Part shown: piece by piece, positions 22,212 through 39,522 of the stretch
How positions within the stretch are numbered: position 1 is the first letter of the stretch
Layout: every line of letters begins with the position of its first letter
Sequence record: PQ850604.1
Direction: 5' to 3' (one strand)
Source of the DNA: Escherichia phage Haito_Bas83
DNA: 44,876 bases
The notes under the pieces: generated by a model
Databases searched by the model: none
What the model saw: only the letters and a program-made list of their open reading frames with translations
What the model was told of the DNA's origin: nothing
Translations under genes and position numbers: made by a program

Positions 22212-22291
22212 GTTATCATCTCCTATATTTGGTTGAGTTTTAGTATTACACCGCTCAACCAAGAATGCAACCAATTTATGAGGATTCAGCT

Positions 22292-24070
22292 ATGGCAGCG
22301 GGTACACTATCCGTAACGAATAACAGCAAGGCGGTTGTGGGCGTCGGCACAACGCTTACCGCGCTGAAGGCTGGCGACTTCCTGTCGCTGGTAGTGGGGC
22401 AAGTCCCTTACACTGTCGCTATTGCATCCGTAGAAAGCGACACCGCGCTTACGCTGGTGCTGCCGTTCGATGGCCCAACGGCAACCGGCCTCGCATGGGA
22501 TAGCGTGGCGCGCGATACCATGTCCCTTGCAACGATGGGTGTAACCGTCCAGGCGCAGAAAGCGCTCCGTATGCTTATCGCGGACGAAAACAACTGGCGT
22601 GCAATCTTCGGCGACGCTGAGGAGATCACTGTCACGCTCCCGAACGGGCAAGTAATGCAGGGTATGTCATGGGGCTATCTGTCGCAATTGCTCAAGCAAG
22701 TTGACCCCGTAGAGATGCGCAACCTGCAACAACAAGCCGCCGCATCGGAAGCCGCCGCGCAGGGATACCGGAACGAGGCAGAAGGCTTCAAGACTGATAC
22801 GCAGGCGATCCACGACGCCACCGATCAGATTAAGACTGATACGCAGGCGATCCACGACGCCACCAACACCATCAAGACGCAGACCAACCAGATTAAGACT
22901 GATACGCAGGCCATCAAGGACGAGACTGACCAGATTAAGACGGATACTGGCGCTATTCGCGATCAGGCCAATACAGCGAAGACGGACGCGCAAGCCGCCC
23001 GTGATGCCGCGCGGGGATACCGGAACGAGGCCGAACAATTCAAGAATGAGATCGACCCGTCGAAATTGCTGGCAAAGGCCAGCAACCTTAGCGACGTTGC
23101 AGACGTTGCAGAAGCGCGCGACAACTTAGGTATCGGGCCGACGGATACACTTAATATTGGTGGCCTGGTAACGTCCGGCGGTATCTCCGCGGGTCGAAAC
23201 ACGTGGGACGGGTCAAACTGGGGTGGCCAGGCGATTAACATCTCGCTAGCCATCCTATCACCAGACGGAAACTCAACACCCGGCTTATATGTGCGCAAAA
23301 GCAACGGCGAAAACGGATATGCGACTGAATGGCTGTATTATGAGAACACGAACGCCTGGGCGACGAACGCGCGAGTTGTCAGCTATCAATTCCGTTCCCC
23401 GAAGGGGCCTATGGGTTATAGTCAGTTGTGGTCTGAAGCTGCGGTACGAGTGGACCCGTACAACGGGCAGCTTAACGCGGAAAACTATCAGTCGTTAGTC
23501 GCGGGGGCGGCTGCGACGCAAGGCCACGGATTTGCGGGCGGTGTTTCGTTCGGGCTTATGACCACCGGCAGCAACAACTGGCCCCGGGCGCAGATCTCGA
23601 TCGGCACACAGGACCGTGACGCCGCGGGGAATATGGGGCAGCAGATGCATTTTCGCTTTGATGACCAGGGGCGGATCTCTTACAACGGGCCGCAAGGCAC
23701 GGGGTCATTCCAGCAAGTGCCCGCATCGGACCGCAACCTGAAGCATGATATTGCCGATGATGCCAGCAGCACCGCCTACGACAACATCAAGGCGATGCGA
23801 TTCCGCACGTTCATATTCAACAACGACGAACAAGAACGGCAGCGCCGCGGGATTATTGCGCAGGAAGTGGAAGAAATCGACCCGCTGTATGTGAAGCACC
23901 GAGAGTATAACAACCATGAGTTAAACGGGCCATTGATGCACCAGCTTGAACTGGACACAACGCCGCTGCTACTCGACACTATGCGCGCGTTGCAGGATAC
24001 GATTAAGCAGGTGGAGGAGTTGAAGGCCGAGATCGCAGCTATGAAACAAGTGGAGGAGTTGAAGAAATAA
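22292..24070 (+). CDS. side tail fiber with C-terminal intramolecular chaperone (peptidase S74-like) domain
   Basis: Start MAAGTLSVTN with RBS GAGGA (track ORF starts 27 nt earlier); tandem 14-aa repeats (TDTQAIHDATDQIK); C-terminal ...SDRNLKHDIAD...MRFRTFIFNNDEQERQRRGIIAQEVEEIDPLYV... resembles the autocleaving chaperone domain of endosialidase and T5 L-shaped fibers. Confidence 0.7.
   Translation: MAAGTLSVTNNSKAVVGVGTTLTALKAGDFLSLVVGQVPYTVAIASVESDTALTLVLPFDGPTATGLAWDSVARDTMSLATMGVTVQAQKALRMLIADENNWRAIFGDAEEITVTLPNGQVMQGMSWGYLSQLLKQVDPVEMRNLQQQAAASEAAAQGYRNEAEGFKTDTQAIHDATDQIKTDTQAIHDATNTIKTQTNQIKTDTQAIKDETDQIKTDTGAIRDQANTAKTDAQAARDAARGYRNEAEQFKNEIDPSKLLAKASNLSDVADVAEARDNLGIGPTDTLNIGGLVTSGGISAGRNTWDGSNWGGQAINISLAILSPDGNSTPGLYVRKSNGENGYATEWLYYENTNAWATNARVVSYQFRSPKGPMGYSQLWSEAAVRVDPYNGQLNAENYQSLVAGAAATQGHGFAGGVSFGLMTTGSNNWPRAQISIGTQDRDAAGNMGQQMHFRFDDQGRISYNGPQGTGSFQQVPASDRNLKHDIADDASSTAYDNIKAMRFRTFIFNNDEQERQRRGIIAQEVEEIDPLYVKHREYNNHELNGPLMHQLELDTTPLLLDTMRALQDTIKQVEELKAEIAAMKQVEELKK
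22791..22979 (+). repeat. in-frame tandem ~42-bp repeats within the fiber gene
   Basis: AAGACTGATACGCAGGCGATCCACGACGCCACC... repeated about four times with variation. Confidence 0.6.
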
Positions 24071-30615: not shown

Positions 30616-32907
30616 TTACTTCCTGTACCGATACATGATGTCGCCTTCGGCGGCAAGTGGGAAACCTTTCGCCCATATAGGCAGGTCACACATCAGCGCG
30701 CAAAGCTCCTCGGTCGTGTAATCGTCGGTGTCCGGCACTTCGGTGATCAATTCATCGTGCACTGACAGGACGATTTCATAGCCCGCAGCTTCAACACCAG
30801 GCATGGACCATGCGAGAATATCGCGGCACAACGCCTGTACTATGTTCTCCGTAAGTTTGCCGCCGTAGGTGTACTGGAATCCCCACTGGCGCGTCGTCTG
30901 ATTCTCGCCCTGGTATTTGATGCGAGTGCTGGTGCGCTTCTTGCCGGTGTCTTCGTCAATCTCGGTAGTGACAGACAGCGCGATGCCCGGATAGCTCATG
31001 ATGCGCCCCGACGGCAACTCAACCTTCAGCCACCAGCCCGCCGCGTTCGGGTCGTCGCGCTCCTCGTCGAATGTTGGGTCGTGCTTCGCCTTCGTGCGCA
31101 CAATCTTGAGCGCTTTCTTGCCATCCGGGCGAACGTTCGCGCCAGCCCAGTATGCCTTACCCGGATTGCGTATTGCACATAACACCGCTTCCTCAAGCTC
31201 GGCCCAAAAGGCTACGGTCTTCGGGTGAGACTCGCGCCACATCCTTTTGATCGCGTCGCAGGTCAACCACACGTTTTTAGGCAGTATGTAAGTCGGGCGC
31301 TCGTCTTTCTTGCCGGGCTTCGGCGGGCGCTTCGCTTCGTTGATGCGGGCAAACTCATAACCGCGTTTAGCCGCCGCCCAAATATGATCGGGGAATGTTC
31401 CCTTCATGACGTCAGCCATTGCGTACAGGTCGAGGCCCAGGTTTTTAGCAAACTGCAAGAACGCCGCGACGCCGCCACCATAGCCCAGTCCCAATTCACA
31501 CGCCTTACCAATCTGGCGTAGGTCTTTGCGGTTGGCTTTGATGTAGTCCGGGTCAAGGCCAAACATCTTACCGGCAGTTTCACAATAGATATCGCGTCCG
31601 GCCTTAAACACCATAAGCGCGGTTTTCTCGCCAGCGATCCAGGCAAGGCCACGCCCTTCCACGTTGGAGTAGTCCGCTACAACAAACTTCTTGCCCTTAG
31701 CCGGGATAATGCACCCGCGAACGGTCGAGGCGGTTAGCTTCGATATGTCATACGCCCAGTGCGCGGTCCCGCGTAACAGGGAGTTGATGCCGTTGGTGAG
31801 CATGTGCGACCGTACCCAAAACGAGACGTCGCTCTCACCTTCGCGGCGCTTAATCTTCCCTTCGTGGTCATCACTGTACTCGCCACGTGCCAGGTTTTGA
31901 GGCTGAAAGCCTTTACCGGCCCAGCGTAGTGTGCGCTTTGCCCCACCATACTGAAGACAACCACGGCGGCGACCATCGGCAGAAAGACCATTGACGAGCG
32001 GATTGTATTTAGTCGATGCCGTTGATGACGCGCCGAGGCGCATTTCAATAAGCACTTTGCCCTCGTCGGGGAAGTCTGGATCTTCCAGTAGGTCATTCAG
32101 CGTGGATTTCTGCGCGTTGTGAATGGTGAACGCCGGGGCGATATCGCGCAGGATTGGCAGGAAGTCATTGCCGGTCAGCTTACCGCCGAACAGTTCCCAG
32201 GCTTCTTCCTTCAATTCCTCTTTATGCACCTGCACCGCCTTGATCGCGGCGTTCGCTAGGTCAACATCCACATAGAAACCGCGGTCGTTAATCAACTGGT
32301 CGATAAGCAGGATTTCGTCTTCCTTCGGGGAGTTGCCCCAGTCCGGTATTCGCCAGTAGACTTCACGCATTGCGATAATATCCAGCGCGGCATAGCGCAG
32401 GAATTTAGCCCATTCTTCAGGGTGAGTCTCGCGCGTGTAGCGGCGGATTTTGTAGGTCTTAGGGGTCGGCTTACAAAATCGCTTAATCAGCGCCTTGCCT
32501 GCCTTATCCTTCGCGTGCTCTGCGTCAACGCCCAGCACCTGGCATTGCATATCGAGGCCACCCGGCAGCGCGTGACGAAAGGCCATAATCATCGTATCTT
32601 CGATCTGGCTTACCGGCAGGTCGATGCCCCACTTTTCACGGATAACCAGGCGGTCAAACAGGAGGCCGTTAGCCATCACTATTTTTGCTTTCTTGCGGGT
32701 TACCTGGCGTAGCGCCTTGCGCAGTTCACGCGGCATCGTGGGGGATTCAGTGGCGTCCCATGTCTGCACGCGGCCCTCGTCGATGGCGTAGGTGCAAATC
32801 ATAATCTCGGTGGATGGGTGTTCTGCATAGGCATACGCACCTGCTTTCTTCAGGTCCACCCCGCTATATGTCTCGGTGTCAAGAAACAGGCGTTCGAAGT
32901 CTTTCAT
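30616..32907 (-). CDS. DNA polymerase, family A, with 3'-5' exonuclease domain
   Basis: Exo I FLDTETYS; Pol motif A DYSNVEGR; motif B RQIGKACELGLGYGGG; motif C VLSVHDELI; 763 aa. Confidence 0.85.
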   Translation of the reverse strand: MKDFERLFLDTETYSGVDLKKAGAYAYAEHPSTEIMICTYAIDEGRVQTWDATESPTMPRELRKALRQVTRKKAKIVMANGLLFDRLVIREKWGIDLPVSQIEDTMIMAFRHALPGGLDMQCQVLGVDAEHAKDKAGKALIKRFCKPTPKTYKIRRYTRETHPEEWAKFLRYAALDIIAMREVYWRIPDWGNSPKEDEILLIDQLINDRGFYVDVDLANAAIKAVQVHKEELKEEAWELFGGKLTGNDFLPILRDIAPAFTIHNAQKSTLNDLLEDPDFPDEGKVLIEMRLGASSTASTKYNPLVNGLSADGRRRGCLQYGGAKRTLRWAGKGFQPQNLARGEYSDDHEGKIKRREGESDVSFWVRSHMLTNGINSLLRGTAHWAYDISKLTASTVRGCIIPAKGKKFVVADYSNVEGRGLAWIAGEKTALMVFKAGRDIYCETAGKMFGLDPDYIKANRKDLRQIGKACELGLGYGGGVAAFLQFAKNLGLDLYAMADVMKGTFPDHIWAAAKRGYEFARINEAKRPPKPGKKDERPTYILPKNVWLTCDAIKRMWRESHPKTVAFWAELEEAVLCAIRNPGKAYWAGANVRPDGKKALKIVRTKAKHDPTFDEERDDPNAAGWWLKVELPSGRIMSYPGIALSVTTEIDEDTGKKRTSTRIKYQGENQTTRQWGFQYTYGGKLTENIVQALCRDILAWSMPGVEAAGYEIVLSVHDELITEVPDTDDYTTEELCALMCDLPIWAKGFPLAAEGDIMYRYRK

Positions 32908-33074
32908 TGCTTTATCCTCACTACTGCGTCAGCGCTGCCGATCATGGAGAAGATACCATCCGACAAGGCAATCTCTTCGCCGTTGTTGCGAATCTCGGCA
33001 ACGGTAAAATACTCGCCCAGCAATTTGGACCATACACGCATTCCGACTTTTACTTCACTGGCTTTAATACGCAT
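32904..33074 (-). CDS. small hypothetical protein (56 aa)
   Basis: ORF MRIKASEVKVGMRVW... whose TGA overlaps the polymerase ATG (ATGA); not in the track. Confidence 0.35.
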   Translation of the reverse strand: MRIKASEVKVGMRVWSKLLGEYFTVAEIRNNGEEIALSDGIFSMIGSADAVVRIKQ

Positions 33075-33085
33075 TTTTCATTGTC

Positions 33086-33113
33086 CTAATAAAAAGCCCG
33101 CAATAAGCGGGCT
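33086..33113 (-). terminator. rho-independent terminator (minus strand) after the SSB-like gene
   Basis: Minus strand reads AAGCCCGC-TTATT-GCGGGCTT followed by TTTTT. Confidence 0.5.
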
Positions 33114-33132
33114 TGAATAGTGGGCTTTGCCC

Positions 33133-33924
33133 TTAACGGCGGCGACGTTTACGTGGTGCTTCGTCTTCGTCGTCGTCGTCGTCCTCATCTTCGTCATCGC
33201 GGGACTTGCGACGCTTGCGAGGTTTTTCGTCTTCCTCGTCTTCGTCATCGTCATCACGACGCTTGGATTTCTTGGACTTGCGCGGCTTATCATCTTCGTC
33301 ATCGTCATCACGACGTTTGGACTTCTTAGCCTTGCGCGGTGCTTCATCTTCGTCATCGTCGTCCAGGTCGTCATCGGAACAAGAAGACCCGCCGCCACCG
33401 AAGGAGTCACCATCGTCACGGAAGCGAAGACCCATCAAACCCGCACCTAGACCTTTGCCGTTGGTGTTGTTCCACGCCCAAATATCCAGGGACACGTTGC
33501 AATAACAACCGGAATAGATTTCCTGGCCTTCGATCTCGTCGCCGTTGATGGTAAGGCCCTGTTCGGTCTGCTTCTCGCCCAGTGACGTTTGGATGTTAGG
33601 CTGTTTGAACGATTTGGCGTTGATGTACAACATGCCTTCAAATTCTTCGGTTACTTCGTCGCGCTCGTCACCGTCACGAACTGCGCATTCCTTAGAATCC
33701 TGGGCGTAGTGGCGGTCCATCCACTTATCGGCGTTCTTCTCGGATTTCAGCTTGTCGGTAAGCACTGCGCGCGCTGCCGCTTCCACTTTGTCCACCTGCG
33801 GATCTTCTTTATCAAGAAGAATCACGGCACGGTATGCCGGTTTTTGTCCATCCTGTTTAGGGGTATCACGTTCCCAAATTTTCAGGAAGCATACACGTAC
33901 ATTTTTCAGGTTGACTTTAGCCAT
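33133..33924 (-). CDS. ssDNA-binding / annealing protein-like (DUF2815-like, tentative) with repetitive charged C-terminal tail
   Basis: Start MAKVNLKNVRVCF with GAGGA RBS; C-terminal ~100 aa are alternating acidic/basic repeats (DDDDEDEAPRKAKKSKRR x3); adjacent to a Cas4-like nuclease. Confidence 0.4.
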   Translation of the reverse strand: MAKVNLKNVRVCFLKIWERDTPKQDGQKPAYRAVILLDKEDPQVDKVEAAARAVLTDKLKSEKNADKWMDRHYAQDSKECAVRDGDERDEVTEEFEGMLYINAKSFKQPNIQTSLGEKQTEQGLTINGDEIEGQEIYSGCYCNVSLDIWAWNNTNGKGLGAGLMGLRFRDDGDSFGGGGSSCSDDDLDDDDEDEAPRKAKKSKRRDDDDEDDKPRKSKKSKRRDDDDEDEEDEKPRKRRKSRDDEDEDDDDDEDEAPRKRRRR

Positions 33925-34014
33925 TTTCCAATTCCTCATTTTCACATTTATCGGGGTTATTGTGAGCCACCCCGTTCGGCTTGGTTGCTAATTTACTTGG
34001 TTGCGCCTAAGCGG

Positions 34015-34257
34015 TCAAGCACTTTTATTAAAAAGATTTCGTGTCACGTAGTTGGTGGCGTTCTCGATCCAGCTTAACGGCGGGCGGTCGATGTGCTTCT
34101 CAACCCAGTCGACGGCGACGTCGCTATATCCGTCGTCCAGCCAGCGGGACGGATGGCGAATCATCCAGGCCACCATTAACACGCCTTGCACGCAATGCAG
34201 GATAAATCCCAGCGCGCCGAGCATAATCATCAATACGAATGCGAATACCTTATTCAT
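34015..34257 (-). CDS. small membrane protein (putative)
   Basis: 80 aa; N-terminal hydrophobic helix FAFVLMIMLGALGFIL. Confidence 0.4.
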   Translation of the reverse strand: MNKVFAFVLMIMLGALGFILHCVQGVLMVAWMIRHPSRWLDDGYSDVAVDWVEKHIDRPPLSWIENATNYVTRNLFNKSA

Positions 34258-35650
34258 TGCTTAAGTCCTCGTCAGTAGCTTCAGACCACGCGGGGCGCGG
34301 GTCGTCGATTGGTGCTAACACCGGTTTAGCTGGTGCGCGCGTGATTTTATCACACAATTTCGCCCACACTTTCGGTTTCTCGTCCTTCAATACCTTCTCG
34401 GCATCAGTAGGACTGAGCAATGTTTCTTTATACATCACGTCGCGCTTGATCCGGGCCTTAGTGAAGACTTCAATCACTTCGCTCTCGTCCGCCCACTTGC
34501 GATTACCTTCCTTACCGGCAACCATCTTGAGGCCCAGCGATTCGCCATCGCCCGCCATTACGGCCTTGAATACCGCGGACTCGATAGCCTTGATGTGCTG
34601 GCGCATTGCGTCAAGACCTTCATATGCCTTGCGCAGCTCCGCCGCGCTCATAGCGCCTGGTGCTTCTTCTTCTTTCTTGCCACGCTTCGCACGTCGTGCC
34701 GCTTTCCGGGCTTCGCGATCGGTAGCCTTCGGTGCTTCGTCCGCCAGGTCGTCGTCTGTTGCCGTTGGTGGGGTCATCGTGTCGATGGCGGCCTTAGCGC
34801 GGGCACTACACTGATCCGCAAATCTACACCACTGACAGGCATCAACGCTCGGTCGGAAGTCGGCACGGGTAAGTCCCTTCTTGCCGCGGGAATACGCGTC
34901 CAGTGCGTCAATAGCACGCTTGGATGCAAACTTCGCGAATATCTCCAGCGCTTCCACGGTAATATCCCACTCCGACGCCCCGCCGCAATACGGCTGGAAG
35001 ATTACCAGGCGAACGGTTGTAATGTCGTACATGGTTTGCAGCTTGCGCAGCAGGCCCAGCGCGTACAACATAAGCTGTTTGTTTTCTTTCGCCTCGACCT
35101 TATGTCGCCCGGTCTTCAGGTCGCCAACAATCAGCATGTACGTGCCGTCGGTCTTCTTCATGACCATTACCATATCGGCAGTTCCGAACGTCTTCACCTT
35201 GTTGCCGTCTATCTCGAAGCCCGGATGCAAGATGCGGGTGAGATCGGCGCGCATTTCAAGCTGTACAAACTCCGCCACTTCAAGGAGCGGTCGCCAGTGG
35301 TCGATGTACGCGTCGCACTGTTTCACCATGTCGTCGTTAACCAGCACGCCGCCTTTCGGTGCTTTCGGGTGCGCCTTTACCGGCCCCTTACCTTCGTTCT
35401 CAACGTAACACCCTTTGTACGTCTTCGCGGATAGCTTCTTCTCTCCGGCAATGATGCGGTTTAGCACGACTTCTGATACGGTGTGCATACTCGTACCGTT
35501 AATCGCAGCTTGCCCGGATTCGTTCGGGATACCTTTTTCGACTACCATGGCGGCGGGGCACCCCATCCATTTTTTAGATCCCGATGGCCCGAGTAATGAG
35601 TGTTCGGTATTACTGCCAGATTGTGTTTTGCGCTTTGGTTTAATAGCCAT
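34250..35650 (-). CDS. PD-(D/E)xK exonuclease with Cas4-like cysteine cluster (DUF2800-like)
   Basis: IVGDLKTGRHKVEAKENKQLMLYALGL core and C-terminal CQWCRFADQC; 466 aa. Confidence 0.5.
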   Translation of the reverse strand: MAIKPKRKTQSGSNTEHSLLGPSGSKKWMGCPAAMVVEKGIPNESGQAAINGTSMHTVSEVVLNRIIAGEKKLSAKTYKGCYVENEGKGPVKAHPKAPKGGVLVNDDMVKQCDAYIDHWRPLLEVAEFVQLEMRADLTRILHPGFEIDGNKVKTFGTADMVMVMKKTDGTYMLIVGDLKTGRHKVEAKENKQLMLYALGLLRKLQTMYDITTVRLVIFQPYCGGASEWDITVEALEIFAKFASKRAIDALDAYSRGKKGLTRADFRPSVDACQWCRFADQCSARAKAAIDTMTPPTATDDDLADEAPKATDREARKAARRAKRGKKEEEAPGAMSAAELRKAYEGLDAMRQHIKAIESAVFKAVMAGDGESLGLKMVAGKEGNRKWADESEVIEVFTKARIKRDVMYKETLLSPTDAEKVLKDEKPKVWAKLCDKITRAPAKPVLAPIDDPRPAWSEATDEDLSNE

Positions 35651-35829
35651 TATTCAACCCTTGTAAACTGGACAATTACATATTTCACATTAGCCAGACC
35701 TGCTTTTTCTACGCGGCGCTTAACTTCATTTTGTGCGTCCACGAAGCAATTGCTCGCGTTAGTGTTTTCCACAATAAAAGAAGTGTGGTCGTCTAAGTCG
35801 TGGCATGTTGCCAGCACGAAGAATTTCAT
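35650..35829 (-). CDS. small hypothetical protein
   Basis: 59 aa from MKFFVLATCHD with RBS GGGAGA; start overlaps the upstream stop (TAATG). Confidence 0.3.
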   Translation of the reverse strand: MKFFVLATCHDLDDHTSFIVENTNASNCFVDAQNEVKRRVEKAGLANVKYVIVQFTRVE

Positions 35830-36080
35830 TATTTCGTCTCCCAACGGTCAATTACTTTTTCCTCCGACGATACTGCAAAGCGAACATATTCTAGATTGGA
35901 GTCCGCCCAAATATAAAAGTCGGGATTAGTAAAGGTGGTGCGCTTAATTTGCGCGGGGTTATCGCGGCGTTTATCTATCACGGCAACGCGTGATTTAAAG
36001 TTGCCGATACGTTCGAATAGCCAATAATAAGGGCGCTGGTCGCGTGAATCCACCGCCTCGATTAGCGTGAAACGTGCCAT
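35829..36080 (-). CDS. hypothetical protein
   Basis: 83-aa ORF in the early operon. Confidence 0.4.
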   Translation of the reverse strand: MARFTLIEAVDSRDQRPYYWLFERIGNFKSRVAVIDKRRDNPAQIKRTTFTNPDFYIWADSNLEYVRFAVSSEEKVIDRWETK

Positions 36081-36128
36081 TGTCTCGTCCTCTAAAAATA
36101 GGCCCGCAGATTAGCGGGCCGGATAATA

Positions 36129-36650
36129 TTAATCTTCTAATTCGAAATACGTTTCTACGATTTCTTTTAAATCTTTATGGAAGTCTTCGACGTCGTCATC
36201 TTCCAGCTTGGCGACGGATTTAATTTCGAACGCTTCCAGCAGATCATCAAATTCGTCGTTTGCGTCGTCGTCATCGCCGCCTGCGATAATCGCGGCATAC
36301 TGCTTGATTTCGTCGCGCATCTCTTTCAGAGGATCGGCTTCTTTCTTGCCTTTACCTTTCGCCGGTGCTTTTTTAGACTTCGCAGGTGCTTCTTCCTCGT
36401 CCGCGTCGTCGTCTTCTTCTTCTACGGCTTCTTTCTTAGCCTTGCCCTTTGCAGGCGCTTTTTTGGACTTCGCCGGTGCTTCATCTTCAGCGTCGTCATC
36501 TTCGACTACTTCTTCTTTTGCCTTGCTCTTAGCCGGGGCTTTCTTCGCTTCCTGTTTACCAACGGCAGCGCCAGCAGTTTCGTAATGCTTAGCGATGGTT
36601 TCCAGTGCTACTACGCCGCGAGTGATCAGGTTTACGATTTGCTCAAACAT
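36129..36650 (-). CDS. lysine-rich repeat protein with acidic C-terminus (first gene of leftward early operon)
   Basis: RBS GGAGAT; three copies of (D/E)EAPAKSKKAPAKGK(A/G)KKE repeats; C-terminal DDDDANDEFDDLLEAF. Confidence 0.5.
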   Translation of the reverse strand: MFEQIVNLITRGVVALETIAKHYETAGAAVGKQEAKKAPAKSKAKEEVVEDDDAEDEAPAKSKKAPAKGKAKKEAVEEEDDDADEEEAPAKSKKAPAKGKGKKEADPLKEMRDEIKQYAAIIAGGDDDDANDEFDDLLEAFEIKSVAKLEDDDVEDFHKDLKEIVETYFELED

Positions 36651-36710
36651 GGTATATCTCCGATTGGTTAATTTAAGTGTTCGGTGCGGTATGCCCCGTC
36701 AACGAGGTGA

Positions 36711-36740
36711 ATAATAGGTTGGTTGCAGGTGGGGTGTCAA
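36711..36740 (-). promoter_or_regulatory. putative leftward early promoter
   Basis: Minus strand reads GTTGACACCCC (-35 TTGACA), 18-bp spacer containing TGCAACCAAC, then TATTAT. Confidence 0.4.
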
Positions 36741-36751
36741 CAACTAATTTC

Positions 36752-36810
36752 AAAAAAAAAGCGCCGAAGCAAAATGCGACGGCGCTAACCAATAAGAGAC
36801 AATGAGACGG
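36752..36810 (-). ncRNA. candidate small RNA or attenuator (promoter-like TTGAAA-N17-AATAAT plus terminator)
   Basis: Minus strand: TTGAAA (36844-36839), -10-like at 36817-36822, then ~55 nt ending in hairpin GCGCCG-13 nt loop-CGGCGC plus nine T. Confidence 0.25.
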
Positions 36811-36886: not shown

Positions 36887-36917
36887 CGTTGGTCATTAAC
36901 CAATAGGAGACAGAACA

Positions 36918-37247
36918 ATGCATATCAACGACGCAATCGAAATGTTAACTAAGACCGTTAGTTGTGAGACAAGCCGGTCCTGGGCTTATACCGATGCCGT
37001 TGGTGCGGCGTTATTTGAAATCGAACGCCTGCGCAGTGTCGAAAAAGAATTGCGCGCCAAGCTGGAATTACTCAACGGTACGGCAGCAAGCAAGCTGCAA
37101 AAACACAATGAAGAAATGGAAGAATACAAAAAGCAGGTTATCCGTTTACGCGACGAGGGCAAGTCCTGGGCGATGATTGCCGAGTTGACCGGAATTAATC
37201 AGAGCACCGTGCGCTCCTGGGTACGCAATAATAAAACTTCTAAGTAA
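36918..37247 (+). CDS. HTH DNA-binding protein (putative transcriptional regulator)
   Basis: 109 aa; helix-rich with C-terminal HTH-like KSWAMIAELTGINQSTVRSW; first gene of the rightward operon. Confidence 0.5.
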   Translation: MHINDAIEMLTKTVSCETSRSWAYTDAVGAALFEIERLRSVEKELRAKLELLNGTAASKLQKHNEEMEEYKKQVIRLRDEGKSWAMIAELTGINQSTVRSWVRNNKTSK

Positions 37248-37257
37248 GGCAACGGCA

Positions 37258-39522
37258 ATGAGCTTAATTAAATTCGCAGTAACAAGACCCGCTAAAAAAG
37301 GCGAAAAAGCCAGGGCGGAAAACTTCGAGATGACCACTGATGAGTTTTTCGAATTTATCAATGATGCGAAAGAAATCTCCTCGGTGCACATCAACAAGAC
37401 TGAAGATAAAGCCGAGTATGCGCGCCGCAAGCGTAAGGCCGATGGCATCGTGGCCTATACCAATGATGGGTTACGCCGCAAGACCAGTGCGGTCGACCGC
37501 TCGATCCTGTTCTTCGATATTGACCGCACCGACACCCGCACATTACGCCGCTGCCGTAAAGCGTTCACCGACGCTGGTCTGGAGCATGTATTCCACACCA
37601 CGACCGGCGACCGTCACCCACTGAAAGGCGGCACACGTTGCGCCCGTTTCCTGGTGCTCACTGACAAGCCTGTACCGGCTGAAGACCTGGGCCGCGTCCA
37701 GTATGCGCTATTAGACCAACTGGGCCTGTCAGATGTGGACTTCGACGATTGTACAAAAGACACCAACCGCCTTATGTACCTGCCTCACCAGCAGTCTGTC
37801 ATAAAGTGCCATTACGGCAAGCGCGCCCGTGTCCGTCGTCTGCTTCGCCTGGCTGACAAGCTGGGAGTTGAGAAAGAGGAAGTGCGCCGCGAACTGACCC
37901 AGGGTGATGACGGCGTGGCGGACGGCATTCTGGATTGGTGCTTCCAGGCTGGCTTTGAACCGCTGTCATCCGGTCGCGGTTATGAAGTGCCTTGCCCGAA
38001 CGAGCACCTGCATAGTGGCGAAGGGTCGACGGCTATCATGGTTAAGGATGGCGAGATCCGTTTCAAGTGTATGCACACCGGCAACGAGTGCTGTTCCGAA
38101 CTGAACAAACACCAGCACCTGGCGCTGCGTCTGATCGGCATTCCGGACCACCTGAACGTCGAACCTCACAACATGTCACGCAAGCAAATCGCCGCCATCC
38201 TTCCGGGACTGGACGACGAGGAAGTGGAATCGTGCTATGAGCATATTGTTGATGCGGTCGGAGACGGCGACGAGTACGGCGAATGCACCGACGCTGACCT
38301 GGACAACGAGCCGGTCGCACTATTCAGTAAGCACGACCCGATCATCGAAGGCCTGGTCAACTTCAAATCGACCTGGTATATGGCTGGTGAGTCGAACATT
38401 GGTAAGTCGTTCTACGTGCTGGGCCAGATGGGTGCTGTTGCCGCAGGTATTCCGTTCGGCGGTGCGAAGGTTGTCCAGTCGCATTGCTTCTATTTCGATG
38501 CGGAAGGCGGCGAAGCCTCAAACCAGCGTAAGGAAGCATTGCAGATTAAATATGAGCACGACCTCGACAAGCTGCACATTATCGATCTGCAATCACGCGG
38601 CTGGGATATCACCAGCAAGTCCGGCTTGCGCGAAGTTATCAGCTTTATCAACCGCACCGCTAACGGGGAGCCGGTTGGCCTGGTGGCCTTCGACTCACTA
38701 AACCAGACTGTAGCGCTGCGGTCCGCTGATGCCAAACCATTCGACGAGAACAACGCCAGCGATATGGGCGAAGTTGTCAAAGCGCTGAAGTCCATTGCGG
38801 AAAATACAGGCGGCAGTGCGGGCGTCATCCATCACCCGGCTAAGGGTGCAAACGGCAGCAGATCCCCACGCGGGTCCGGCGCGCTTCATGGTGCTGTCGA
38901 TTCTGCGTTCTTCCTGGAACAGCCGGACGACAACCAGCCAGGCCAGCTTAACCTGTATCACGAAAAATCACGTAACGGCATCAAGCAAGCTCCGCGCGGC
39001 TTCGTCCTGCTCAAGTGCAAGGTCAAGGTGGATCTCCGCAAGTCTGATGCGTTCGAAGCACACCAGTCCACCAGCACCGGACCAGACTTTGGTGATGTTG
39101 TTGCCGGTTGGGACGTCAAGCCGATCGCATCCACGCCACGTGACGAGACTCTCTACCTCGTACCGGTCGCCCTGGCACCGTTCGCTATCGAACAGGCGAA
39201 GGCAGCAGGCAAGGCAGCAGTTAAGGAAGAGAACACCGCCGGACCGCGCAACGAAAAAGAGAAGGTGCTTTATGCGGCACTGGAAAAACTGATGGAAGAT
39301 AACCCGGACCATACTGGATTCAGTAAATCGGCAATTGTCCGCCAGGCTGGACTTGCGAAAGGTGGCACATCGACGAAGGCAATCGACGATATGGTGGAGC
39401 GCGGAGTGCTCGGATTTTATACAGATCCACACACTGGGGCCATCTACGGGTCGTCGAATCTGGTCATCAAATCGGATATACCCATCACGCTTTCGGCGAC
39501 CGATGACGACCTGAAAGATTAA
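37258..39522 (+). CDS. DNA primase / RecA-fold replicative helicase (primase-helicase) with C-terminal winged-helix-like region
   Basis: Walker A GESNIGKS and Walker B-like GLVAFDSL; Cys/His cluster CPNEHLHSGEGS...CMHTGNEC; 754 aa; iteron region immediately downstream. Confidence 0.6.
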   Translation: MSLIKFAVTRPAKKGEKARAENFEMTTDEFFEFINDAKEISSVHINKTEDKAEYARRKRKADGIVAYTNDGLRRKTSAVDRSILFFDIDRTDTRTLRRCRKAFTDAGLEHVFHTTTGDRHPLKGGTRCARFLVLTDKPVPAEDLGRVQYALLDQLGLSDVDFDDCTKDTNRLMYLPHQQSVIKCHYGKRARVRRLLRLADKLGVEKEEVRRELTQGDDGVADGILDWCFQAGFEPLSSGRGYEVPCPNEHLHSGEGSTAIMVKDGEIRFKCMHTGNECCSELNKHQHLALRLIGIPDHLNVEPHNMSRKQIAAILPGLDDEEVESCYEHIVDAVGDGDEYGECTDADLDNEPVALFSKHDPIIEGLVNFKSTWYMAGESNIGKSFYVLGQMGAVAAGIPFGGAKVVQSHCFYFDAEGGEASNQRKEALQIKYEHDLDKLHIIDLQSRGWDITSKSGLREVISFINRTANGEPVGLVAFDSLNQTVALRSADAKPFDENNASDMGEVVKALKSIAENTGGSAGVIHHPAKGANGSRSPRGSGALHGAVDSAFFLEQPDDNQPGQLNLYHEKSRNGIKQAPRGFVLLKCKVKVDLRKSDAFEAHQSTSTGPDFGDVVAGWDVKPIASTPRDETLYLVPVALAPFAIEQAKAAGKAAVKEENTAGPRNEKEKVLYAALEKLMEDNPDHTGFSKSAIVRQAGLAKGGTSTKAIDDMVERGVLGFYTDPHTGAIYGSSNLVIKSDIPITLSATDDDLKD

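Follow-up and report, generated by a model that had tools for sequence, protein, structure and literature searches.

Three neighbouring genes of Escherichia phage Haito_Bas83 (PQ850604.1), whose whole stretch of 44,876 nucleotides is referred to here as the window, encode two proteins with blocks of alternating charge and a nuclease that lies between them. They are the gene of a binding protein for single-stranded DNA (SSB) at 33133-33924 (263 amino acids), the nuclease gene at 34250-35650 (466 amino acids) and the first gene of the module, here called g1, at 36129-36650 (173 amino acids), and all three were present on the minus strand, as an original prediction had read them. The best explanation, which we hold with moderate confidence, is that these genes form the head of a replication and recombination operon, in which disordered charge repeats have arisen in frame and independently in two genes and would serve docking and organising roles. 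The genes are thus of known kinds (SSB and nuclease) together with a member of an unnamed family, and the proposal of interaction tails in a nuclease/SSB module is plausible and gains support from comparison across lineages.

According to this explanation, the repeats would stem from tandem duplications in frame, which code for intrinsically disordered stretches where acidic and basic blocks alternate. They would give the SSB a constrained four-unit extension in place of the usual short acidic tail, and g1 a variable-copy tether that connects an N-terminal helix to a three-helix C-terminal domain (C-domain), each repeat having probably arisen on its own from a disordered segment that the respective family always has. 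The acidic motif (S/T)D(D/E)DL on the SSB, the nuclease and the primase-helicase may act as a common docking element, much as T7 DNA polymerase is docked by the tails of gp2.5 and gp4. Within the SSB tail, the basic blocks might contact acidic surfaces (the tail's own acidic blocks, or the acidified linker and the C-domain of g1) and/or DNA, and g1 could act as an SSB-tail-binding organiser of the module; for this organiser and for the docking element alike, the function is inferred. The main features are as follows.

33391-33924, minus strand: SSB OB-fold domain, amino acids 1-178, gp2.5/Enc34 type (PF10991, E 4e-32)
33136-33390, minus strand: SSB tail, amino acids 179-263 (85 residues), from Tandem Repeats Finder and reading of the units
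34250-35650, minus strand: predicted DUF2800 RecB/Cas4-like PD-(D/E)xK nuclease, 466 amino acids (PF10926, E 3e-67; PF12705, E 3e-8; phrog_69, exonuclease)
34646-34762, minus strand: charged interdomain linker of the nuclease, amino acids 297-335, read from the sequence and opening with TATDDDLA (34742-34765)
36129-36650, minus strand: g1, acidic open reading frame (ORF) product of 173 amino acids, isoelectric point 4.5 (phrog_3127, E 8e-50)
36558-36650, minus strand: g1 N-terminal helix, amino acids 1-31, near-invariant in relatives (AlphaFold2 helix 2-31, predicted local distance difference test score (pLDDT) ~70)
36333-36557, minus strand: g1 disordered charge-block linker, amino acids 32-106 (AlphaFold2 pLDDT <50)
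36132-36332, minus strand: g1 C-terminal three-helix domain, amino acids 107-173, net charge -15 (AlphaFold2 pLDDT >90)

Architecture of the SSB, g1 and the nuclease

Amino acids 10-200 of the SSB match PF10991 with 111.7 bits (cut-off 26) in a profile search, and the solved structures 4KLK, 4JG2 and 5ODJ (Enc34 ORF6) are matched with E values of 1e-10 to 1e-13. By homology, the 263-residue protein is a gp2.5/Enc34-type SSB, and the named family PF10991/DUF2815, against which the original prediction had suggested comparing the N-terminal domain, was indeed the one recovered. Binding of single-stranded DNA (ssDNA) and strand annealing would be expected by analogy with T7 gp2.5 and Enc34 ORF6 (PMC5686142), and an annealase activity of the module would follow from T7 gp2.5 alone.

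The tail starts with GGGG-SSCSDDDL, in which the acidic SDDDLD is encoded at 33361-33378, and it bears out the claim that this protein ends in charged repeats, as it comprises four acid/base units: DDDDEDEAPRKAKKSKRR (33310-33363), DDDDEDDKPRKSKKSKRR (33256-33309), DDDDEDEEDEKPRKRRKSR (33199-33255) and DDEDEDDDDDEDEAPRKRRRR (33136-33198). Each unit is built of an acidic run and [AK]PRK..(K/R)n, and the tail contains 40 D/E (29 D, 11 E), 28 K/R (15 R, 13 K) and 4 P. At the DNA level Tandem Repeats Finder detects a 54-nt period (2.3 copies, 88% matches, score 188) at 33239-33360. The C-terminus is basic, PRKRRRR, and because the 85-residue alternating tail has RKRRRR as its last residues, the canonical gp2.5-type acidic tip with a hydrophobic or aromatic C-terminal residue is absent from the window SSB. 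A DDDIPF-like acidic tip of the E. coli SSB type was not found there either, and the acidic SDDDLD instead opens the tail. The tail is under purifying selection, since it has four units in all nine Dhillonvirus genomes compared, with small in-frame insertions or deletions (indels) only, and its variable sites fall 14/11/51 on the three codon positions (14/8/91 in the OB domain).

A second minus-strand frame (33078-33419) is open across the whole SSB tail and extends 55 nt beyond the SSB stop. Two database proteins, P0110 (phage vB_EcoS-22664B1) and P0115, are OB domains fused to this second tail frame, and they result either from indel mistakes within the repeat or from frameshift variation that occurs naturally.

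The second repeat-bearing protein, g1, has no match in Pfam, NCBIfam or PDB in profile and sequence searches, and the hits of g1 or its family profile to BUD22, ribosomal protein S20 and designed ankyrin repeats were set aside as low-complexity or spurious. An AlphaFold2 model built from close relatives alone was unusable (mean pLDDT 48.8); with a wider family alignment of 30 sequences, helices are predicted at residues 2-31, 107-124, 128-140 and 151-169 and disorder at 32-106. An ER/K single alpha-helix was considered for the charged segments and ruled out, as each SSB unit contains a proline and the acidic blocks of the SSB are Asp-rich, while the g1 linker has 5 Pro and is modelled as coil with pLDDT below 50.

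The linker-coding DNA contains a 90-nt tandem repeat (1.9 copies, 83%, 36335-36503, score 232 in Tandem Repeats Finder), hence the tandem nucleotide repeats of both genes lie nearly where they had been reported, with periods of 54 and 90 nt rather than 60-70. The tandem units at 36335-36423 and 36425-36513, direct-repeat family D1, encode EAPAKSKKAPAKGK and an acidic run. Two of the three charged repeats first reported in g1 are exact copies of EAPAKSKKAPAKGK, and the remaining one, which stands first, is the degenerate EAKKAPAKSKAK.

The g1 protein had also been credited with an SSB-like acidic tail, DDDDANDEFDD, and this attribution fails, as the string is internal (amino acids 126-136 of 173) rather than C-terminal. 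It forms the loop and the start of the second helix in the modelled three-helix domain, and it aligns without gaps to 'KGADAAKQLL' of the relatives; g1 is neither an SSB nor SSB-tailed. The sequence GGDDDDANDEFDD (36243-36281) lies in the loop between helices A and B of the C-domain. The string DEFDDLL also resembles D[DE]F[DE]D[LIV], the tail motif found across the SSB family, but it was dropped as a free motif because its two leucines occupy core positions of helix B that every family member conserves.

Homologues of g1 were grouped into 105 clusters, which share a nearly invariant 30-residue N-terminus and a 67-residue C-terminus. In the 100 clusters from which linker statistics were taken, the linker varies from 18 to 82 amino acids, its net charge has a median of 0, the counts of acidic and basic residues are correlated (r = 0.87), and arginine is nearly absent (10 R among 1736 K+R). 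The linker is in frame in 102 of the 105 clusters, and in the nine genomes all gene lengths are divisible by 3, thus the repeats keep their reading frame rather than behaving as slippage artefacts without a conserved frame. Repeat number differs between the two proteins: across the nine genomes g1 varies from 142 to 179 amino acids while the SSB units stay at four, and no co-variation of g1-linker and SSB-tail length was found in these genomes. The record of Bas85 (PQ850624) annotates an antisense ORF (36177-36671 in window coordinates, plus strand) in place of g1; the variable sites of the C-domain fall 7/4/46 on the codon positions of the minus-strand frame, which shows that g1 is the real gene and under selection.

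The nuclease covers profile positions 1-368 of 368 in PF10926 with 227.9 bits, and this named family, DUF2800, is again the one foreseen. Its motifs are GTADMV (amino acids 156-161; 35168-35185), GDLKTG (176-181; 35108-35125) and QLMLYALG (192-199; 35054-35077), and its cysteine cluster has the form C31...C272-x2-C275-x5-C281, with CQWCRFADQC at 34808-34837 and C31 within 35549-35563. By these motifs and the four cysteines, the protein between g1 and the SSB is, as proposed, a PD-(D/E)xK nuclease with a Cas4-like cluster, and by its profile match a complete DUF2800 RecB/Cas4-like enzyme, with metal and Fe-S binding predicted only. The basic stretch REARKAARRAKRGKK of the interdomain linker is conserved in Dhillonviruses, and an indel distinguishes DDDLADEAPKATD of the window and Bas85 from DEDLGDDVSIATEEEC.NHDRNMA of the other Dhillonviruses. 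The linker string 'DEAP' was considered as a third copy of the module and dropped, since it is a product of this indel found only in the window and Bas85, the others having DEDLGDDVSIATEEEC. Elsewhere, one relative, L097 (69-2294), carries a DUF2800 nuclease fused to a PAPS-reductase-like domain (741 amino acids), whose C-terminus, TDDDLSD, mirrors SDDDLDD of its own SSB, and Tad2-like (PF11195) genes occur in replication modules (L092, 5721-5984; L009, 18621-18890), once directly between the nuclease and the SSB gene.

Independent origin and recurrence of the charged segments

The original prediction regarded the charged segments of g1 and the SSB as paralogous. At the peptide level, SSB tail and g1 linker give a local score of 107, whereas full shuffles give 66+-8 and shuffles that preserve the charge classes 80+-6, so their resemblance exceeds composition and charge pattern. 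A common ancestry, by which one module was copied between the genes or homogenised by gene conversion, could also draw on the core (D/E)(D/E)E[AK]P.K common to both, on a 15-nt exact match, GAAGATGAAGCACCG, and on a distant phage, L094, in which the C-terminal extension of the g1-family protein and the SSB tail share KKKAS(S/A)KRSRDDDDD with borderline DNA support (p 0.05). Paralogy failed in every test, however. The DNA similarity of the two repeats in the window lies within synonymous-codon nulls (score 20 versus 18.5+-2.8 for synonymous permutation, p 0.37, and 16.6+-2.6 for codon-usage resampling, p 0.14), the periods differ (54 versus 90 nt, or 18 versus 30 amino acids), and the basic residues of the g1 linker are K only (0 R, 20 K), unlike the mixture of R and K in the SSB tail. 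Furthermore, AP/K/E-rich linkers are usual in the g1 family, to which they are ancestral, and long-tailed SSBs typically bear (D/E)n-[AKR]P-(R/K)n units, which are widespread among them, therefore each repeat is an elaboration of the disordered segment of its own family. For this window paralogy is already largely refuted, and we consider it highly unlikely. The shared core (D/E)EAP-x-K-x-KK, as first described, is a real peptide resemblance, although the most specific shared motif is (S/T)D(D/E)DL.

Mixed acid/base tails are not confined to the window. In a first search for SSB homologues such tails appeared common, but because that search picks by shared words and is biased toward low complexity, its tail frequencies were left unused and the OB domain by itself served as query of an exhaustive phmmer search instead (1839 hits), from which the 146 complete proteins among the best 150 were surveyed. 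Tails are purely acidic in 130 of these 146 unbiased representatives (median 26 amino acids, typically ..DDFDDLS....DDLV) and mixed in 16 (11%; median 68, up to 170). A neighbour-joining tree of the OB domains shows about 20 changes of tail class, and for 11 of the mixed-tail SSBs the nearest neighbour is acidic-tailed, which indicates that the mixed tail is a recurrent variant. Distant mixed tails usually retain an acidic/hydrophobic tip (..DDDDVA, ..DDDLPF), whereas tails of the Dhillon-like clade have RRRR at their end. Literature searches yielded no account of gp2.5-like SSBs with such mixed acid/base tails.

The charge of g1-family proteins changes with the tail type of the SSB. Acidic runs of at least 4 residues are found in none of the 63 family members at short-tail loci and in 10 of 10 mixed-tail lineages, a strict co-occurrence. 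Charged residues (D+E+K+R) make up a fraction of no more than 0.33 at the short-tail loci, compared with 0.35-0.50 in the mixed-tail lineages, and the net charge of the C-domain shifts from a median of +1 to values between -1 and -18, g1 itself being near the acidic end. In addition, the loop between helices A and B is basic (KGRD) in short-tail lineages and acidic in mixed-tail ones. Low-complexity segments of cognate g1-family and SSB pairs outscore non-cognate ones (p 0.0045 with ten lineages, 0.027 with eight), and lineage-specific strings are shared in L094, where DEDEKPAKKKASAKRSRDDDDD pairs with DDDEPKSKKKASSKRSRDDDDD, and in L096, where DEEKPRKRRS pairs with EEERPRKRTS; in L095 both tips end in ..DDVV. 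The proposal that the tails mediate protein-protein interactions is plausible because this charge enrichment accompanies mixed-tail SSBs across lineages.

The shared motif and the module

A motif scan of the 64 non-overlapping ORFs of the window recovered D[DE]DL at four sites, two of them in the nuclease and one each in the SSB and the primase-helicase. These sites are located just after the OB fold of the SSB, in TATDDDLA of the nuclease linker and at the C-termini of the nuclease and the primase-helicase, the last two being:

34253-34279, minus strand: nuclease C-terminal acidic motif, ATDEDLSNE at the stop (motif scan)
39493-39519, plus strand: primase-helicase C-terminal motif, SATDDDLKD at the stop (motif scan)

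The strict form [STA][STA]D[DE]DL is observed three times, against 0.028 expected, and (S/T)D(D/E)DL is the motif most specifically common to the replication proteins of the window. The primase motif is kept as ASDEDLNS or DDADLE in the relatives L009, L013 and L012, whose SSB domains are about 50% identical. Moreover, the last 14 residues of the nuclease resemble cognate over non-cognate SSB tails (p ~1e-5, 26 lineages), as in L033, where the nuclease ends in NDFDDLSDDALAADLI and the SSB in DDFDDISEGADADALI.

In phage T7, the acidic tail of gp4 docks on the gp5 polymerase at a site common with gp2.5. The likeness to the window is that one short acidic motif recurs on SSB, nuclease and primase-helicase; however, the motif sequence differs, the Dhillon-like clade has no terminal Phe, the SSB motif is internal to the tail rather than terminal, and the nuclease carries the motif as well. 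Interactions of T7 gp2.5 have been described (PMC5686142, PMC13402713).

Among other SSBs, the window protein differs from each known type in its tail. T4 gp32 has a basic N-terminal 'LAST' segment and an acidic C-terminal domain, proposed for cooperativity and partner binding; basic K/R/S-rich and acidic segments are thus likewise combined in one SSB, but at opposite ends and with a different fold, whereas the window SSB alternates four times within one tail. The linker of E. coli SSB is Gly/Pro/Gln-rich and uncharged. A long low-complexity segment after the OB domain is common to E. coli SSB (PMC7145534; PMC12143593) and the window SSB, which is a block polyampholyte of gp2.5-type OB fold without the acidic tip of the former, and by this analogy a role of the tail in cooperativity or condensation is conceivable. 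With T7 gp2.5 and Enc34 ORF6 (PF10991; PDB 1JE5, 5ODJ) it shares the OB fold, an acidic-rich disordered C-terminal segment and a position beside a nuclease gene and that of a family A polymerase. In Enc34 ORF6 the C-terminal segment is short and purely acidic, acidic residues making up 16 of the last 29, and its removal permits binding of double-stranded DNA (PMC5686142), in contrast to the 85 residues of the window, where acidic runs alternate with PRK..KRR blocks. The SSB of SECphi4, a close relative, triggers Retron-Eco8, as does T7 gp2.5, and its flexible C-terminal residues were omitted from the structure figure (bioRxiv 10.1101/2022.08.27.505566).

Genes of the g1 family recur at the head of the module. 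The distant mixed-tail SSB contigs carry the same cassette, whose first gene is likewise built of three parts and can be recognised by its C-terminal motif. An OB-domain alignment retrieved 80 viral contigs, in which most short-tailed-SSB loci have a g1-like gene directly upstream of the nuclease, and a search with the C-domain alignment added further members (P0373-P0402), all unannotated. At 63 of about 80 loci, a general hidden Markov model (HMM), built from unrelated members without g1, recovered an ORF (E < 1e-3) that lies on the plus strand, 1-2.5 kb upstream of the SSB gene. The upstream position, on the same strand and at the operon start, is common to the window, L009-L011, L092-L096 and these 63 loci. 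The two ends of the family are bridged by L092, L093 and L095, which match both the general and the g1-seeded HMM (E <= 1.3e-3); in addition, the g1-seeded HMM gave 25 weak hits, of which 19 are family members, hhalign of g1 against the family gives P = 0.0046, and PHROG cross-hits link 3127, 18562, 408, 3709 and 22695. The g1 C-domain aligns ungapped to that of the family, and by these remote similarities g1 is a divergent, acidified member of a widespread uncharacterised head-of-module family, PHROGs 3127/408/18562/3709/22695/6784, which has no Pfam or NCBIfam entry. No description of this family was found in the literature, and a BFVD fold search with g1 returned uncharacterised phage proteins only, with no functional lead. 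Family members in Streptococcus 'Javan' prophages and Erysipelothrix phage phi1605 (H77, H85, H92-H95) are labelled 'putative rRNA biogenesis protein rrp5', which we regard as a spurious, propagated annotation.

Over the region 33000-36700 the identity with Escherichia phage RuthEpting_Bas85 is 97.5%, and there are matches in 155 phage records, nearly all Dhillonvirus, to which the window is assigned by this similarity. On the minus strand the order is g1, two small ORFs, the nuclease, a small membrane ORF of 80 amino acids, the SSB, an ORF of 56 amino acids and the family A polymerase PolA; the window has no other ssb gene. A helix-turn-helix (HTH) gene and the primase-helicase gene (37258-39522) diverge from the module on the opposite strand. 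Since the cluster includes PolA and the primase-helicase, it is foremost a replication module, and of the exonuclease/annealase recombination module that had been envisaged, the identities of nuclease and SSB hold. The same three genes in the same order constitute a known duf2800-gp2.5-polA module (PMC8093625), described without the upstream fourth component that the window has in the g1-family gene before the nuclease. Further features of the locus are:

30616-32907, minus strand: family A DNA polymerase, downstream module partner (PF00476, phrog_17)
36711-36740, minus strand: sigma-70-like promoter upstream of g1, TTGACA-18-TATTAT (11 of 12 consensus matches)
36101-36120, minus strand: intrinsic-terminator-like hairpin directly after g1 (7 G-C pairs, then a T run)
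33094-33114, minus strand: intrinsic-terminator-like hairpin after the SSB gene (hairpin scan)

Of the early expression first ascribed to g1, the strong sigma-70-like promoter is the one sign recovered. Several other elements lie in or near this locus. The sequence TAACCAAT-N-GGAGA occurs three times in the divergent early control region (36657-36672, 36786-36801, 36897-36912); g1 (minus strand) and the HTH gene (36918) each have a copy just upstream of their start codon, a small plus-strand ORF may follow the third, and the element could be a shared translation-initiation or regulatory signal. The HTH protein (36918-37247, plus strand; HTH_23/HTH_28, E ~1e-6 to 1e-7) bears the name 'transposase' both in PHROGs and in Bas85, but looks more like a small regulator, because it has 109 amino acids and HTH is its only recognised domain. 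Between the SSB gene and PolA lies a 56-codon gene (32904-33074, minus strand; phrog_10102). A 'SECphi4 56aa protein of unknown function' is among those cloned by Stokar-Avihail et al. for a defence-trigger screen. The PolA of the window is uninterrupted (763 amino acids), while that of L005 (Sodalis phage SO-1, 1-208) is annotated with a group I self-splicing intron. Outside the module, a 42-nt tandem repeat (22788-22878, 2.2 copies, score 145 in Tandem Repeats Finder) lies inside a 608-residue ORF (22244-24070) with the C-terminus ...EELKAEIAAMKQVEELKK.

Alternative explanations and significance

The repeats might also be neutral by-products, namely expansions by slippage or unequal recombination in purine-rich coding DNA, which are tolerated in disordered segments and have no specific function. 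This is a rather doubtful account, although the g1 linker agrees with it in several respects: it ranges from 18 to 82 residues and is nearly absent in some relatives, it has gaps in 37 of 75 alignment columns, and amino-acid changes (42) outnumber synonymous-only columns (19), while acidic runs are generally commoner in other proteins of the mixed-tail phages as well. What speaks for a function is the four-unit SSB tail of the nine genomes with its third-position bias, the sustained charge neutrality of the g1 linker, the repeated evolution of mixed tails, and the co-occurrence with charged g1-family proteins (10/10 versus 0/63) together with the charge inversion of a folded loop. A different role, that of an early anti-host DNA mimic (Ocr- or Gam-like) titrating a restriction enzyme or RecBCD, could be imagined for g1, which is the first gene behind a strong promoter, has its own terminator and is acidic in overall isoelectric point and C-domain charge; in the gam-bet-exo cluster of lambda, moreover, an anti-RecBCD gene adjoins recombination genes (bioRxiv 10.1101/2022.08.27.505566). 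Most family members, however, are near neutral and occupy the same conserved position, therefore the ancestral role of the family is not DNA mimicry; acidification follows the SSB tail type, and fold searches gave no match to known mimics, which together leave this role improbable.

Another possibility concerns the DNA rather than the protein, as the 90-nt repeats of g1 could be replication-origin iterons of the lambda O type; the O gene of lambda contains origin iterons inside its linker-coding region. The tandem repeats of g1 are similarly placed in the linker-coding part, beside the divergent promoter region, which has the lowest G+C in the window (0.476) and the minimum of the cumulative GC skew. 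Yet the units are dispensable in relatives, including P0090 (a 44.8-kb contig) and P0097, the variable sites of the linker fall mostly on the third codon position (24/26/59), as under selection at the protein level, and no iteron DNA-binding domain was recognised in g1, so that such an origin is hardly credible. In the opposite direction, the docking and organising explanation can be extended to a dedicated SSB-tail-binding organiser: in lineages such as Dhillonvirus, SSB tail and g1 would have co-evolved as complementary block polyampholytes, held together on ssDNA by multivalent electrostatic contacts in a coacervate-like replication hub, to which the acidic motif on SSB, nuclease and primase would recruit the enzymes. 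This stronger version seems rather unlikely.

Several observations weigh against the explanation that we prefer, that is, charge repeats with docking and organising roles. The g1 linker is nearly repeat-free in P0090 (122 amino acids) and P0097 (115 amino acids; a 3.7-kb contig), which indicates that the repeat number of g1 is not critical. The pair of g1 linker and SSB tail in the window ranks fourth of ten in cognate resemblance. Acidic runs in other long proteins are about four times as frequent in mixed-tail phages (0.81 versus 0.21 per 1000 amino acids), thus the co-occurrence may partly be a phage-wide compositional trend, and the mixed-tail lineages, which stem from the word-indexed, low-complexity-biased search, represent perhaps 3-5 independent clades. 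The general family HMM gave no direct hit on g1, in keeping with a remote link, and a Foldseek search of g1 against PDB returned nothing below E 0.29, only generic helical bundles.

Modules with gp2.5-type SSBs are among the commonest replication and recombination cassettes of phages, and the window offers three handles on them: an unnamed fourth module gene, a co-varying acidic motif, and a polyampholyte tail accompanied by a charge change in its partner. Should the proposed contacts not be real, the repeats amount to low-complexity expansions of an ordinary kind in proteins already known. Should they be real, they would account for the tethering of replisome and recombination enzymes in such phages, and they would provide a natural system for the study of co-evolving disordered regions.

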